IMG/VR virus record: IMGVR_UViG_3300009095_000002
Span: 1-45,689 of that record
From: a virus
Taxonomy: Duplodnaviria; Caudoviricetes
Strand: one strand, 5' to 3'
DNA length: 45,689 nt
Shown: positions 29,286 to 39,852 of the stretch, one piece after another
Numbering within the stretch: the stretch's first letter is position 1
How the letters are laid out: every line of letters starts with the position of its first letter
The notes under the pieces: model-generated
What the model saw: only the letters and a program-made list of their open reading frames with translations
Told to the model about the DNA's origin: nothing
Database searches by the model: none
Made by a program: the position numbers and the translations under genes

Positions 29286-29758
29286 TCGTACAGCCCCTCC
29301 TTGCTGTCTTTGCGGAATTGCTCTACCTTATCTGCATGGATATTCTTGTCAATGACTGCCGGGTCTTCATCTTCTCTGATATACTTAAATGCAACCATAT
29401 CAAACATTACATCAGGATGAAGCCATATTTTAGATCTTGCCTCTAGCTCGTTTATCAAATGGCCGATTACTGCCACGTCTGGCCTTTTGCCGTTGTTTAA
29501 TGCGGCCTTAACTGCGATTATAAAATCTTCCACATACGAATCATCCAGGCCAAATTTAACCCCCATTAGTCGTCTCTGAATTTCCTGTGTTCTTACATGA
29601 GGCAAATCCAAATCCTTGTCAGGGCTGAAATATCTCCTACCTTCAGAATCGACAAACTGAACTTTCATGTTCTCAAACCCGGCACTGGTTGACTGTTCAG
29701 TAAAGTATATCTTCAATATCTGTTTCCTGAACAGGCGGTAAAACAGCTTAATTATCAT
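29138..29758 (-). CDS. Tail assembly chaperone (putative G)
   Basis: Upstream of the tape measure gene; contains GAT TTT TTT TAC. Confidence 0.55.
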   Translation of the reverse strand: MIIKLFYRLFRKQILKIYFTEQSTSAGFENMKVQFVDSEGRRYFSPDKDLDLPHVRTQEIQRRLMGVKFGLDDSYVEDFIIAVKAALNNGKRPDVAVIGHLINELEARSKIWLHPDVMFDMVAFKYIREDEDPAVIDKNIHADKVEQFRKDSKEGLYDFFYKARLTDVLPFLKSLESEFQEFWQESIVQLKAKETQIKSIISKLSL

Positions 29759-30068
29759 AATGAATTTTATTGTAAATAAATAGATTTACTCCAGAAGAGG
29801 CAATAATAACAAATGGACATAACAGCAGGCTATATAGAGTCGGCTCTGCCAATACCCAGTAAATAATTGACCCCCAGAATGAGGCATAGCATACAACGCA
29901 ACCAATTATAGGATTGTAAATAAATCGTAATTTATGTTCCTCGTGAAACGTTTCATTCATCCAGGTTCTGAATGGAGACAAAACATAACCTTCACTTGAG
30001 ATAAGAGCAAGTCCATTACAGAAGAGTGAAATGAATAATATTTCTAAGAGTATATTAAGCATCGACAT
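29748..30068 (-). CDS. Membrane protein with CxxC (DUF1360-like)
   Basis: Three hydrophobic segments; PIIGCVVCYASFWG. Confidence 0.65.
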   Translation of the reverse strand: MSMLNILLEILFISLFCNGLALISSEGYVLSPFRTWMNETFHEEHKLRFIYNPIIGCVVCYASFWGSIIYWVLAEPTLYSLLLCPFVIIASSGVNLFIYNKIHYDN

Positions 30069-30426
30069 CCATTTTAAGTACCCAAGTTGTAGCCTCTAAT
30101 CCGTGAACATCTTCGAAATAAACGCCTATACAATCATACTCTAAATCGCCTATTGTGACAGGCAAAACATTATGATCACCATCGTAAACAGTTATTTCAT
30201 AGTAAGAGTCTTTGTTGTAGAATTCTCCGCTTGGATCTCTCAAGTTAAGTATAACCAATCCGGTGTCTTCATTCGCTGGAATTGTCTGGTCACATTGATA
30301 TCCGGTTGATTTATTTACAACTCTTATATTCCCGAAAGGCTCAGGAAATACTATGGGGATAGTGCCTAAAATTAGGTAATCTAAACACGTAGGAACTTTT
30401 TGCGCTATTTGACAGATACAGGACAT
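30055..30426 (-). CDS. Hypothetical structural protein
   Basis: First gene after the late promoter; acidic, Cys-rich N-terminus. Confidence 0.65.
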   Translation of the reverse strand: MSCICQIAQKVPTCLDYLILGTIPIVFPEPFGNIRVVNKSTGYQCDQTIPANEDTGLVILNLRDPSGEFYNKDSYYEITVYDGDHNVLPVTIGDLEYDCIGVYFEDVHGLEATTWVLKMDVDA

Positions 30427-30440
30427 TTGGCGTTTGGTTT

Positions 30441-30510
30441 ACCTCCTTATTATCTGCCTGAGAGTGGGCAACTATCGTAAATATAATAATTTGCGTATAA
30501 TTTACAAAAA
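30441..30510 (-). promoter_or_regulatory. Late promoter followed immediately by AGUUGCC..GGCA leader motif
   Basis: TTTG-N19-TATATTTA (30478-30508); AGUUGCC-CACUCUCA-GGCA-GAUAAUAA-GGAGGU (30473-30441). Confidence 0.6.
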
Positions 30511-30514
30511 ATGT

Positions 30515-32812
30515 TTATCGCCCTGATTTCTGGTGAACATCAATCCATTTTCTTAAGAAAGTATTTATTCCGTAGCGTTCGCAATTATGTACCAAAATAT
30601 TATTAGCATAAAAGCAATGTTCGTCCTCAACAGTTATGTCATACACTTGCTGAACTCCTATTTTTTTTGCCTCTACTACCGTTAGGGTTTGGTGTTGGCC
30701 TACATTCTGCAGAACAAAACCTTCTTTTGTTGTATTTTTGTGTAATAAATTCGCATCTACAATTTTCGCATATTGCTTTAATTGGATCTCCCCCTGATAG
30801 TCTTCTGTGTTTTGATTTACACAAATTCGAACAGAACCTTTGCCTGAAGCTTGCCTTTTTAAATTCAATTTGACAGCAATCGCACTTATGAAAGCCGTAA
30901 TCCCTGACCCCAAACCCACGCTCTTTCCCATGTTTACTATGCCACCTTTTACCCTCTTCTGAACCATGCCATTCCTTCGCATGCTCTCTTCCGATTTCTG
31001 CAAGTGTAATAAATCTAACTGGGTCTTCCTTTGCTCGATTCTTTCCGTGATATTTACTATGCTCTGATCGTTCAACCAATTCAAGGTTATCAATCGTGTT
31101 GTTATAAGCATTATGGTCTTTGTGATGAACTTGATACCCTTCTGGAATTTCTCCGTAATTATCAAACCAAATCTGCCTATGTAGCGACCTTGAATATCTT
31201 TCACCCTTTCTTGATGAATAGTAATATTTTTGTTTTGGGTGCTTGTAATATGAAATCCCGTTGTATTTAATGACCTCTTGCATACTGATTTACTTTCTGT
31301 AAATATACGCAATATCTCGCACCATCCGTAATTATGAGCATAGAATTTATGGCCTTTCGTACACTTTATTTTTTCACCATTTGAAAAAGTAAATTCATAT
31401 ACTTCTGCTGTCGAACTCCAATTGTCTATTACTTTTTTATACCCATTTTTTGTCAAAACATAATCTCCAATAGCTATATTTTCAATTATCTTTTGTCCGT
31501 TAATAGTGGTTATCTCTGTATCTCCTGTGAAGCAGTCTAAATAATCGGCTCTCTGCGTTAAGTCATTTCTGTTACGCTTCAGTATCTCTCCAAATGCATC
31601 ACATTGAACCGTTCTCATATCTCGGCAGGTATTAGGACATGTTTCTGGATTTATTTTATAGTCTGGAAAATTTGCCAAAACATAGTTAACGTCTGAACTA
31701 GAATTATCATGCTGTGGATTTGGCTTTACTCTAAGCTGTGTATCAGACAATCTTAACGCTCTTTTGATCTGAAGGTAATAACTTGCGTTATCTTTTTGCG
31801 ATAATTGCTTTGCTGTACCCCAGTGATCTCCAGTAATAATGCAGTTATGTAGATATGCTCCATATTTAGCCTTCAACAATTCTATCATTGCGGGGATAGA
31901 CCCATGCTTTATTTCTGCCTCATCAAATGTGTGATAATGTTCTCCCTCTGAGTCTCTCCACATGTGAGAAAAATTAACTGCAAACGGTGTCAAGTTGAAG
32001 TCTATTTTTATCAAAATTTGCTTATCTGGCCTAAATATAGCAGCTCTAGACTCATGCTTACTTGCATTGTATTGATGCGCAAATGGGCTTAGGACCTCTC
32101 TTTCTGCTTCCCAATCTCCATATAGTAGCCTTTTCTTGTCATAATCAGAAGTCATTTTATTCAACTGCTCAATATAGAGCTGCCTAAATGCCTCATCTGG
32201 ATTGTCGGTTGGCAATGCCTGAACGAACTTCTGATAGGGAGCAAGAATTACAGGTTTTGCATTTTTGTCCAAAACAAACCTCTCCTTCACCCAGCCAGGA
32301 CCAGGGTTGCAAGTAATTAAAGTTTTTGGCTTTAGCCCGAATTCTGCAATCTTCCATCTAAGACGGCTATTTACGATTTCAAAAGCTTTCTGAGTTATTT
32401 CTGTAGCCTCATCAATGAATGCGTCTGTATATTCGGTAGAACCTAGCGAGGTAAAATCAGGGTCAGAAGGGTAATATTTTAAATCCTTAAATACAGTCTT
32501 GCTGTCATTCTTCCAAGTAACAGTATGGTCTTGCCCATTATATTTGAAGTCAATCCCGGCACGATAACCCATGTCGGCACATGTCTTAAAAAATGTGATA
32601 AGGGTTGATTCTTTAAGGGCCGATAATTCAGCCCTTCCAATAAGCCCACGTGAATTTGGATATGTCGTACGCCTGTAAATATGCCAAATACAACCAAGCC
32701 AACTTTTACCCCCTCCTGCTGCCCCTCCATATCCTATCTCAGTAGTCTCGTTATCTTCTAAATATTTCCAGGCTAATGTTTGCTTTTTACTTAACTTAAT
32801 CCTCTTGCTCAC
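30515..32812 (-). CDS. terL: Terminase large subunit with intein (mature protein about 448 aa)
   Basis: YGGAAGGGKS Walker A, FIDEA Walker B, TCNPG, IDFN nuclease motif; spliced C-terminus reads ADYLD|CERYG. Confidence 0.95.
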   Translation of the reverse strand: MSKRIKLSKKQTLAWKYLEDNETTEIGYGGAAGGGKSWLGCIWHIYRRTTYPNSRGLIGRAELSALKESTLITFFKTCADMGYRAGIDFKYNGQDHTVTWKNDSKTVFKDLKYYPSDPDFTSLGSTEYTDAFIDEATEITQKAFEIVNSRLRWKIAEFGLKPKTLITCNPGPGWVKERFVLDKNAKPVILAPYQKFVQALPTDNPDEAFRQLYIEQLNKMTSDYDKKRLLYGDWEAEREVLSPFAHQYNASKHESRAAIFRPDKQILIKIDFNLTPFAVNFSHMWRDSEGEHYHTFDEAEIKHGSIPAMIELLKAKYGAYLHNCIITGDHWGTAKQLSQKDNASYYLQIKRALRLSDTQLRVKPNPQHDNSSSDVNYVLANFPDYKINPETCPNTCRDMRTVQCDAFGEILKRNRNDLTQRADYLDCFTGDTEITTINGQKIIENIAIGDYVLTKNGYKKVIDNWSSTAEVYEFTFSNGEKIKCTKGHKFYAHNYGWCEILRIFTESKSVCKRSLNTTGFHITSTQNKNITIHQERVKDIQGRYIGRFGLIITEKFQKGIKFITKTIMLITTRLITLNWLNDQSIVNITERIEQRKTQLDLLHLQKSEESMRRNGMVQKRVKGGIVNMGKSVGLGSGITAFISAIAVKLNLKRQASGKGSVRICVNQNTEDYQGEIQLKQYAKIVDANLLHKNTTKEGFVLQNVGQHQTLTVVEAKKIGVQQVYDITVEDEHCFYANNILVHNCERYGINTFLRKWIDVHQKSGR
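30584..31534 (-). mobile_element. Intein (317 aa) in TerL nuclease motif
   Basis: Block A CFTGDTEITT, block B IKCTKGHKF, block F VYDITVEDEHCFYANN, block G LVHN|C. Confidence 0.95.
30639..31283 (-). CDS. HNH homing endonuclease, overprinted in the -1 frame inside the intein
   Basis: SLHRQIW...GEIPEGYQVHHKDHNAYNNTIDNLEL..SEHSKYH plus two CxxC..FCSxxC zinc modules. Confidence 0.93.
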   Translation of the reverse strand: MQEVIKYNGISYYKHPKQKYYYSSRKGERYSRSLHRQIWFDNYGEIPEGYQVHHKDHNAYNNTIDNLELVERSEHSKYHGKNRAKEDPVRFITLAEIGREHAKEWHGSEEGKRWHSKHGKERGFGVRDYGFHKCDCCQIEFKKASFRQRFCSNLCKSKHRRLSGGDPIKAICENCRCEFITQKYNKRRFCSAECRPTPNPNGSRGKKNRSSASV

Positions 32813-33278
32813 TATTATCCAAAATGATTATTGGAGCAGGAATGTTAATCGTCTGGTCTATTTCCTGCTTGTCTCTTAGCCCTAGATCTCTGGCAATTAT
32901 ATTAGAGTTAAAGAACCCTGATGCAGCCCCAGAGAACTTTTGATTGTATATAACATCTTCTATACGCGTAATGATTGCGGAAAAATCTTCATCGCACGTT
33001 TTTTTAAAGTCGCTGAAATACCGAGTATTACAATCTAAATACTGGCAAAGCCCCTGCATTGTAAATGGCCTCATAACGGGAATATCAATCAGCCTAACAT
33101 CTGATTGGTAATCTCCTATATTTACAACTTTAGCCTCTGATTTATAAAATGGATTATCGATGCACCATTGAAAATACTCACATGCCGCATCCCACATTAA
33201 TTCAGGTGTTGCGAATAAAATGTCTCTTCCATGCTTGCTTCTTAATTTCCAAAACTGATTCCCTGCTGGTGCTGCCAT
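32796..33278 (-). CDS. terS: Terminase small subunit (P22 gp3-like)
   Basis: MAAPAGNQFWKLRSKHGR...ACEYFQWC...IYNQKFSGAASG..NIIARDLGL. Confidence 0.93.
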   Translation of the reverse strand: MAAPAGNQFWKLRSKHGRDILFATPELMWDAACEYFQWCIDNPFYKSEAKVVNIGDYQSDVRLIDIPVMRPFTMQGLCQYLDCNTRYFSDFKKTCDEDFSAIITRIEDVIYNQKFSGAASGFFNSNIIARDLGLRDKQEIDQTINIPAPIIILDNSEQED

Positions 33279-33312
33279 AATTCACTTCTAATTAGTGTAC
33301 TTCATACACAAT

Positions 33313-33921
33313 TTAGGAATTTTTATAATATTTCCAAAACGAAACTTCATTCCAATCGAAATACATCTGATCCCACTCCGGCAAATACCACCTCATTTTA
33401 CATTGAATAGTGTCGAAAAACAAAAAACCTGTTGTTGGCTGTCCGCATCTACTCAATGTTAGCGGCTGAGATTTTGGGAACGAATCTTCTATACCCTCAA
33501 CATGCTCAAAATTATTAAGATCTGGGATACGATCCCTTACCAAAATCCATTCTTGAACATTTAAAGCATCGTTTATTATGGTATGATCGCACTCAAGCTG
33601 CGTGGAAAAGCTATCAATTATTTTTCCCCACCTCTCATTTTCTGACTCTTTATCCCTGGTATTTTGTTCAATGTGTTTGATATAATCGCTTATGACATCT
33701 TTCTTATAATTTAGAATTGTCAATTTTGCTTCCATTACGCTTGATCCTGTGAGCGGGCTCCATTCTTCAAATTTGATGGGGGTCGGGAATTGCGGTTCAG
33801 GTGCATTTAAAATATGACCTTGTGCTTTGGATTCAGTTCCTCTGAGCTCATATTCAATTACACACTCTTTTCTCTGCTGTGCCAATAGCTCCTTTACTTG
33901 CTCTTCTGTGTATAGTTTCAT
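33313..33921 (-). CDS. Hypothetical protein
   Basis: 202-aa ORF. Confidence 0.7.
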   Translation of the reverse strand: MKLYTEEQVKELLAQQRKECVIEYELRGTESKAQGHILNAPEPQFPTPIKFEEWSPLTGSSVMEAKLTILNYKKDVISDYIKHIEQNTRDKESENERWGKIIDSFSTQLECDHTIINDALNVQEWILVRDRIPDLNNFEHVEGIEDSFPKSQPLTLSRCGQPTTGFLFFDTIQCKMRWYLPEWDQMYFDWNEVSFWKYYKNS

Positions 33922-38878: not shown

Positions 38879-39643
38879 TTATAAATTGTTGTATGCTTCT
38901 ATTGCTTTAAATATGTGAAGTATCAACTGAGGTACAATTGAATTGCCAAGTGCCTTCAATCTTTCTCTCCGACCGGGCGAGTCCAATCTTTCGGGAACCC
39001 CATCAACCACTCTGATAAATCTGGATGTAAAGCCTGCCCAGTCTTCACTTTCCCAATCTGGTTTATCACATCCCTCAAATTTGATTTCTCTACTATCTTT
39101 CCTTTTTCCACCCTTTGAGTTGATGCCATTCGCCCTCCTCTTTCGTCCGAAGCTGTCGGAGTAGGCAACAAACCACGTCCTTTTCCTTTCATGCCATGCT
39201 CCAATGGCAGAAGCTGGAATAATAATCGGTTGTACTTTGTACCCCTCAGCTTCCAACGATGAACATATTTCTTCGAATGTTTTTCGAAACTTTGGTGCAG
39301 TAATTCCATAAACGTTCTCTCCCACGATCCAAGGGGCTTCAGTCTCTCGTGCTGCTCTAAGCATTTCAGGAAATAAGTATCTTTCATCCTGTTCTCCTTT
39401 TTGATCTCCTGATAAGCTGAATGGCTGACATGGGAATCCTCCTGTAAGGACGTCGATGTCTCCTCTGTGAATAGTAAAGTCTGTTGTTGTAATATCTCCA
39501 TAACTCTTAGATTCTGGCCAATACTGTTTTAATAATCTTTGTCCTGATTTATTCCATTCACAATGAAACACATTATCCCAACCCATCCATTCAGCCGCTA
39601 ACTCTGGACCTCCAATTCCAGAAAATAAACTCCCGTGTCTCAT
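38879..39643 (-). CDS. C5 cytosine DNA methyltransferase, alpha polypeptide
   Basis: Motifs I SLFSGIGG, IV GFPCQ, VI ENV, VIII HERKR, X LGNSI; motif IX missing. Confidence 0.93.
   Translation of the reverse strand: MRHGSLFSGIGGPELAAEWMGWDNVFHCEWNKSGQRLLKQYWPESKSYGDITTTDFTIHRGDIDVLTGGFPCQPFSLSGDQKGEQDERYLFPEMLRAARETEAPWIVGENVYGITAPKFRKTFEEICSSLEAEGYKVQPIIIPASAIGAWHERKRTWFVAYSDSFGRKRRANGINSKGGKRKDSREIKFEGCDKPDWESEDWAGFTSRFIRVVDGVPERLDSPGRRERLKALGNSIVPQLILHIFKAIEAYNNL
38956..39501 (-). CDS. C5 methyltransferase beta polypeptide (nested, +1 frame; EcoHK31I-type)
   Basis: LLPTPTASD...LHPDLSEWLMGFPKDWT supplies motif IX. Confidence 0.8.
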   Translation of the reverse strand: MEILQQQTLLFTEETSTSLQEDSHVSHSAYQEIKKENRMKDTYFLKCLEQHERLKPLGSWERTFMELLHQSFEKHSKKYVHRWKLRGTKYNRLLFQLLPLEHGMKGKGRGLLPTPTASDERGGRMASTQRVEKGKIVEKSNLRDVINQIGKVKTGQALHPDLSEWLMGFPKDWTRPVGEKD

Positions 39644-39852
39644 CTTTCTTTCTGTTTTATCCCCTATTATACCATAGGGGAGTATCATTTTAAAAAAAAC
39701 GCTTTGTTTTTGAACTTACCGAACTTAAAATATTGCCAGTTTACTTTGAACTCTGGCAAAGTCAAACAATCTTCCTTGTTGGTCGGCCATTGCCTGACGG
39801 TCTGTTTCCAATTAACCGCAGATGATCTTTCATCTTTATCAGGTTGGTCTTT

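Follow-up and report, generated by a model that had tools for sequence, protein, structure and literature searches.

An HNH endonuclease gene nested in the -1 frame of a contiguous TerL intein in a Caudoviricetes genome

The virus record IMGVR_UViG_3300009095_000002 (Duplodnaviria; Caudoviricetes), analysed here over positions 1 to 45,689 (45,689 nt, hereafter the window), contains a gene for the terminase large subunit (terL) with a contiguous intein, and within this intein lies an intact HNH endonuclease gene read in the -1 frame. Sequence comparisons make it highly probable that the intein is removed by protein splicing, that the nuclease is translated separately and that it promotes homing into empty terL alleles. 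The HNH gene is the conserved element, and in its shadow the central part of the intein frame stays open passively; the initial annotation of this DNA, which described the nuclease as overprinted on the intein, had the relationship the wrong way round. The features of the locus are listed below with their positions in the window (ORF, open reading frame; aa, amino acids).

30515..32812 (-), terL, terminase large subunit precursor; a single ORF of 765 aa, matching Pfam Terminase_3 and PHROG terL families
31535..32812 (-), N-extein, 426 aa, ending in DYLD
30584..31534 (-), contiguous intein, 317 aa, Cys1 to His-Asn, with class-1 type residues; both ends defined by empty alleles
31349..31534 (-), N-terminal splicing region, extending from Cys1 of block A to T59 and H62 of block B
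30584..30646 (-), C-terminal splicing region, block F (VYD) and block G (HN)
30515..30583 (-), C-extein, 22 aa and stop, starting with Cys+1
30639..31283 (-), nested HNH endonuclease gene, 214 aa, in the -1 frame relative to the intein; Pfam HNH_3 match and structure model
31047..31184 (-), HNH nuclease core, residues 34-79 (H53, H54, N62, N66, H75, H79), invariant in 16 sequences
30702..30884 (-), two four-Cys modules, predicted to bind zinc (C134/137/151/155 and C172/175/190/194)
31284..31307 (-), candidate HNH expression signals: TAA at 31290-31292, A at -3, -6, -12 and -13, and TATATTTA at 31300-31307
32796..33278 (-), terS, P22 gp3-like small terminase gene, upstream neighbour of terL (Pfam GP3_package, E 1e-29)

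Structure of the intein and of the nested gene

The region 30584-31534 is translated without a stop into 317 aa, running from CFTG to VHN and followed by Cys+1. The residues of a class 1 contiguous intein are present, namely C1, the TxxH of block B (T59/H62), Y298-D299 of block F, H316-N317 and Cys+1, and the match to Pfam Intein_splicing (E 2e-10) passes the family cut-off; the insertion is missing from homologous alleles. Both intein ends are certain, because an empty allele on another metagenome contig (L173) reads DFLD-CERY over the junction and two contigs of run X2 omit precisely 951 nt. The spliced TerL product would be 448 aa long. The final Asp of the N-extein (Asp426) aligns with the conserved Asp of the C-terminal TerL nuclease motif, which we take to be a catalytic residue of this motif.

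In the structure model of the intein frame both ends are confident, with a predicted local distance difference test score (pLDDT) of 80-91 across residues 1-70, and pLDDT falls below 50 in 126 of the 317 residues, all of them in the middle; the model supports the view that the middle is low-confidence filler. A profile search found no nuclease family match in the intein frame, so that the canonical arrangement with an in-frame endonuclease does not apply. A split intein or fractured gene was rejected for the window copy, the intein frame being open from end to end. An HNH gene encoded by a group I or group II intron was also rejected, as the intein motifs are complete and an Rfam search over 29500-33500 found no intron family (one chance match, E 0.58).

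The HNH ORF starts 251 nt into the intein, i.e. in frame 3 or -1. An in-frame TAA lies two codons upstream of its ATG (31290-31292), and its stop is a TGA made from the Tyr-Asp codons of block F, located at the identical 55-nt offset in 22 of 65 representatives of the family described below. The product matches Pfam HNH_3 (PF13392) over residues 34-76 (E 7e-15) and retains all the His, Asn and Cys residues that are invariant across 16 relatives. Its structure model has a mean pLDDT of 86.7, and the top fold match of residues 5-85 is I-HmuI (PDB 1u3e; Z 7.3, rmsd 3.2, 78 residues aligned), with which it shares this fold and the HNH_3 family. It differs from I-HmuI in a C-terminal region comprising a helical WH-motif part and the two Cys4 modules, for which there was no good match among solved structures; a sequence search of solved structures with the nuclease gave nothing except a weak zinc-finger match. 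Two points weigh against the I-HmuI assignment: Z 7.3 falls in the range that the tool rates as middling, and Foldseek with the HNH model returned nothing at E<=0.001. The core expected of an I-HmuI-like homing endonuclease, with its catalytic His and metal ligands, is recognisable in the sequence, and the roles of these residues are presumed here to be those of their I-HmuI counterparts. The nuclease is predicted to be an HNH homing endonuclease, and it is likely that it would cut the empty allele site-specifically.

Most of the anatomy had been recognised in the initial annotation. Its 765-aa TerL ORF with a complete 317-aa intein in the nuclease motif is confirmed by translation, splicing motifs and empty alleles, and its intact 214-aa HNH protein with two zinc modules, in the -1 frame and with a stop in block F, by the HNH_3 match and the invariant residues. 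Its statement that the intein frame holds no endonuclease between blocks B and F agrees with the missing nuclease match and the low-confidence middle.

Selection on the two frames and signs of mobility

The double-open frame is not due to chance, because random recoding almost never leaves both frames open. When the HNH gene was recoded synonymously, the intein frame acquired a mean of 5.2 stops and remained free of them in 0.16% of 20,000 trials; when the intein frame was recoded, the HNH frame stayed open in 0 of 20,000. By computation about 5 stops have to be avoided in the -1 phase versus about 28 in the other phase, mostly by synonymous choice at Leu, Ile and Val codons, and the constant -1 phase of the family is likely to be favoured by the genetic code for this reason. 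The layout is not an assembly error, because contigs of three other, separate studies (X2, X6 and X7) retain both frames. No frameshifting indel was found in the intein in run X1, which may be the source, nor in X2, X6 and X7, and a net 3-nt insertion in X7 preserves both frames.

The pattern of substitutions supports purifying selection on the nuclease frame, with a switch of the third position at the HNH ATG. In eight nested pairs (1509 codons) the differences at HNH codon positions 1, 2 and 3 numbered 190, 131 and 362, and the amino-acid change was 17% in the HNH frame versus 30% in the intein frame; free-standing HNH pairs gave a similar pattern (55, 51 and 111). Among close relatives of the window copy 11 of 14 listed differences within the overlap fall at HNH position 3, and upstream of the HNH ATG 15 of 26 fall at intein position 3 (Fisher p 1.4e-4), a comparison that comprises 40 listed differences and excludes 23 further rows. 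The intein frame appears to be constrained mainly to remain open: it has no stops in any of 81 distinct nested viral copies, versus 1-13 (median 7) in all 29 of 29 free or split relatives. The locus thus has the properties of a non-canonical intein, an open intein frame with an intact out-of-frame nuclease ORF between the splicing blocks and selection on the nuclease frame. That selection keeps both frames open, as initially proposed, is upheld by the recoding trials and the stop-free intein frames, and the per-frame substitution check places purifying selection on the nuclease.

The histories of intein and extein conflict, as homing predicts, a view supported by sequence identities among relatives. 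The window and its relative P0002 share 97.8% identity in the intein and 80.1% in the nuclease-domain extein, and P0002 and P0003 share 98.4% in the extein and 67.2% in the intein. A contig of run X6 differs from the window at 24 of 1316 nt in the intein and its flanks and at 159 of 990 nt in 5' terL. In the empty allele of X2, 28 of 176 and 18 of 141 flank bases differ, that is 13-16% right up to the junction, and this run, a single sample, holds both filled and empty alleles. The distribution is patchy and incongruent with the exteins, comprising three lineages and empty alleles in a small sample. The tract of intein plus flank that is shared fits co-conversion during homing. Against this, ordinary phage recombination could yield such a tract, and X6 resembles the P0002 lineage, so the two are not independent.

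The HNH alleles also appear mosaic: P0003, compared as the intein-frame protein, is near-identical to the window over approximately the first 55 codons of the overlap and divergent afterwards, and the listed differences of X7 from the window HNH concentrate at the 5' end. A low-depth contig of X7 has lost 561 nt in frame from a related intein.

Expression, mechanism and alternative explanations

The cultured TerLs closest to that of the window come from phages of Cellulophaga and Flavobacterium, with 47% across the ATPase part. The window is a phage genome, probably with a Bacteroidota host, because of these nearest TerLs and because a Shine-Dalgarno-like (SD-like) motif is present in just 7 of 45 listed start contexts.

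The octamer TATATTTA (31300-31307) has one mismatch to the Bacteroidota -7 element, which close relatives match exactly, and the window start carries A at -3, -6, -12 and -13, positions at which A favours initiation in Flavobacterium according to PMC6847099. Among family representatives 61 of 69 have an ATG close to the HNH N-terminus, an SD-like motif precedes the start in 26 of 65 (background 15%, p 8e-7), and just upstream of the start an extended -10 was found in 9 of 67 and a Bacteroidota -7 element in 6 of 67 (per-position backgrounds 0.25% and 0.47%). Several observations weaken this evidence. The mismatch in the candidate -7 element falls on a nearly invariant base, making it weak in the window copy, and no exact -7 element was found within the window intein. 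Of 879 control ATGs, 8% have a context as good as or better than that of the window HNH start, which no SD precedes. Sigma-70-like sites are no more frequent than chance would give (10 versus an expected 10.3), and the promoter patterns were picked after viewing the list of starts, so their enrichment is post hoc.

The following course of events is proposed. Ribosomes translating terL would pass through the intein frame, which is open throughout. The Hint domain would fold around a loop of about 200 aa and join Asp426 to Cys+1, restoring DYLD-CERY, as the intact motifs and the empty alleles suggest. Translation of the HNH protein would begin at its own ATG, and some relatives probably also have a promoter for it; the -1 phase would be favoured as the one with fewer stops to avoid. 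I-HmuI is a nicking enzyme, and by analogy the HNH protein may nick, or else cut, intein-less terL near the junction, after which repair would copy the intein together with some flank, as the distribution of alleles suggests.

The nuclease might instead be made by -1 ribosomal frameshifting, as a fusion of N-terminal TerL, the N-terminal intein part and HNH. The invariable -1 phase and the missing SD of the window copy suit this explanation, as does the fact that 22 of 69 representatives have slippery-type heptamers close to the HNH start, a count that comes without a background value. It is nevertheless improbable. The in-frame TAA two codons ahead of the ATG leaves almost no room for slippage, no slippery heptamer lies there in the window copy, and across the family stop and start are a median of 6 codons apart; there is also an enrichment of start codons and of SD- or promoter-like motifs, and stop-codon avoidance explains the phase more simply.

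HK97 gp74 provides a model of an HNH protein acting as terminase cofactor, and domestication for such a role, in place of homing, is a shade less probable again. Close relatives precisely lack the whole insert, and the HNH-less mini-inteins L028/L029, related to the HNH-bearing L003, also indicate that the nuclease is dispensable; its top fold match is a homing endonuclease. Free relatives do adjoin terminase genes in cultured phages, but proximity to terL is equally expected for a homing gene that targets terL. The cofactor idea has been raised for the brucellaphages (PMC4422536).

Similarly small is the probability that HNH is an untranslated or inactive relic in a vertically inherited intein. 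Decayed relatives do exist, with a premature HNH stop in L002 and a remnant in L026, but in close relatives of the window copy the substitutions follow the HNH frame, its conserved residues are all intact, and a near-identical intein occurs in divergent exteins. Compensating indel errors masking an in-frame HNH intein, or an RNA intron, can be practically dismissed, as the independent contigs of X2, X6 and X7 show no frameshifting indels and refute the indel version, the phase is identical across 81 distinct viral copies, four cultured phages among them, and the locus has full intein motifs and no Rfam intron. A contiguous intein with a separately expressed homing nuclease is the most likely explanation.

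The wider family and comparison with known systems

Profile scans of viral contigs yielded 80 loci via the intein and 80 via HNH (one shared) from about 2,700 matching stretches, and 12 GenBank phage regions were added; scans of viral contigs with the single HNH protein or the TerL N-extein gave no loci, so profiles were needed. The 163 HNH genes comprise 115 distinct ones at 95%. Of these, 81 (counting that of the window) lie within an open intein, in every case in the -1 frame and never as an in-frame fusion. The remaining HNH genes are free-standing beside terminase genes or located between split-intein halves with a separate C-terminal ORF. The strict catalytic pattern is present in 69 of the 81 nested genes, and the 12 misses include L002, with its premature stop. 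With regard to classification, contig ends truncate L070 and L147, and L141 and L166 count as nested, the N part of their intein being divergent; L165 is split, whereas L085 is broken and not split. An additional 80 loci in prokaryotic genomes, not deduplicated and with bin assignments that can be wrong, comprise 33 nested (all -1), 10 split, 36 free or with no detected intein and 1 broken. The titles of the 33 nested ones name Bacteroidota, Planctomycetota, Pseudomonadota, Bacillota and other phyla, and six archaeal bins.

The insertion points of most family inteins are spread over several neighbouring codons surrounding the final Asp of the TerL nuclease motif, and the two nearest relatives of the window copy in both trees have its insertion site. 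On the splicing-domain tree the split inteins fall on one side (support 90). The HNH tree is poorly resolved, with 11 of 96 branches starred; the nested state needs 10 label changes on it, of which the starred branches force 2, and single or repeated capture are both compatible with this tree. A joint inheritance of intein and nuclease finds little support family-wide: splicing-domain and HNH distances are uncorrelated (Mantel rho 0.006; 69 rows, only 93 columns), and the insertion site follows the HNH tree weakly (20 changes versus 24.7 shuffled, 8 of 500 as low, with noisy labels). In a tally by intein profile 73 of 84 inteins are nested, a figure that is biased since the ranking used the whole intein including the overlap.

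The absence of in-frame members looks like the mark of a stable design and not of a passing intermediate. The 'evolutionary intermediate' of the initial annotation is therefore doubtful, as neither the 81 viral nested copies nor the 33 nested genome loci include an in-frame fusion. Its suggestion of an undescribed third design does not hold either. According to PMC4422536 (2015), terL of all brucellaphages contains an HNH gene that is encoded out of frame by an intein, and same-phase arrangements with other nucleases appear in preprints. Brucellaphages Tb and Pr resemble the window in having a contiguous TerL intein and a same-strand nested HNH gene with zinc modules in a different frame, a layout that the Tb record (GenBank JN939331.1) bears out. 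However, the Tb gene is in the +1 frame and the window gene in the -1 frame; the Tb HNH is of another type, with a C-terminal core and a score of 15 bits against the family profile, in the zinc region only; and the Tb intein is located in the N-terminal ATPase half, whereas that of the window is at the C-terminal nuclease motif. The window copy thus departs from the brucellaphage type in HNH type, phase and insertion site.

Among the preprints, bioRxiv 10.1101/2025.01.02.630785 describes inteins of actinobacteriophages in which frame 3 encodes an endonuclease VII-like protein; it proposes that they arose when a free-standing nuclease gene invaded, and it too puts forward the 'intermediate' idea. 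These inteins are like the window copy in strand, phase and contiguity; they differ in nuclease family, and the main text lists HNH solely in frame, without TJE1 or Tetrasphaera. The cyanobacterial dnaX intein of bioRxiv 10.64898/2026.09.14.751524 carries a LAGLIDADG nuclease in a +2 ORF with frame-dependent selection. It shares with the window the phase, the selection on the nuclease frame and the coexistence of full, mini and empty alleles, an SD preceding the nested start in the dnaX case; it differs in its LAGLIDADG nuclease, cellular host gene and single insertion site, as reported there. The ShiLan insertion in phage methylases (PMC11855218) similarly hides a zinc-finger HNH in the third frame of an open insert, but as described has no intein domain and is not predicted to be removed. 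The -1 phase of the window is the phase in three of the compared papers.

Fractured genes with split inteins (PMC2677866) are a further point of contact. In that source GIY-YIG and Vsr-like nucleases were seen and HNH fractured genes were predicted but not seen; the window HNH family was found here between terL split-intein halves, for example in Lactobacillus phage CL2 (L091), although the window copy itself is not split. Split TerL inteins flanking a free HNH occur in L091, L099, L101, L118, L139, L156, L158, L162 and L165, where a small unannotated ORF bears the intein C part and the C-extein.

No paper on the window HNH family at the TerL nuclease site was found in the open literature, and the supplements of the 2025 preprint, outside this search, might list members. 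The general design is already known, and the HNH family at the TerL nuclease site is apparently what is new. A broader interpretation, for and against which we see about equal grounds, is that this is the largest, apparently undescribed dual-coding intein lineage, occurring in viruses that infect archaea and many bacterial phyla and directed at several neighbouring codons surrounding the final Asp of the TerL nuclease; that nesting is a stable end state in which a nuclease promoter and start uncouple homing from TerL synthesis and splicing; and that the nuclease moves between free, split-intein and nested states.

Out-of-frame intein nucleases are called rare in the compared papers, in so far as they address the matter; the window family suggests that they are frequent but overlooked in annotation, since the records of four cultured phages (phiCDHM19, Highwayman, Tetrasphaera phage TJE1 and Rhodobacteraceae phage LS06-2018-MD07) show only terL over the nested gene. 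An intein whose endonuclease has been scored as decayed may therefore be mobile. Because almost one and the same terL is available in filled, empty and divergent versions, the locus is well suited to tests, and it bears on how inteins first gained endonucleases. The family is also a source of numerous small HNH nucleases whose predicted targets differ and of inteins tolerating 200-aa inserts.

Individual members show further variation. A decay series at one site leads from the intact L003 (299 aa) through L002 with its HNH stop to the 125-aa mini-intein of L028/L029, and L026 keeps an HNH remnant only. In L082/L083 (Acinetobacter phages Highwayman and BP10) a clade with support 96 unites the nested HNH with a free-standing one located upstream of terS, which suggests exchange between the nested and free states. 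In L017, L072 and L079 terL has two nested-HNH inteins at different sites. L085 (phage phiCD119, 1543-2529) contains a related intein and HNH, both interrupted by stops, with terL annotated as two genes, through decay or sequencing error. Another non-canonical layout is present in L073 (735-1898) and L075, where a 388-aa open intein has on its antisense strand an ORF of up to 282 aa with repeated zinc modules, and L058 (2501-3802) has three tandem Hint domains ending one ORF. At the protein level only, P0013 has an intein of the same type and filler signature in a protein annotated PF01041, which is not a terminase.

Elsewhere in the window, no cultured relative of the portal protein was found. 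A second nested pair is located at 38879-39688 (-), encoding a 269-aa C5 DNA methyltransferase, and 38956-39501 (-), a 181-aa ORF in another frame that also matches a methyltransferase family. The pair resembles the two-subunit M.EcoHK31I/M.AquI type, in which the small subunit is presumably encoded in an alternative frame.

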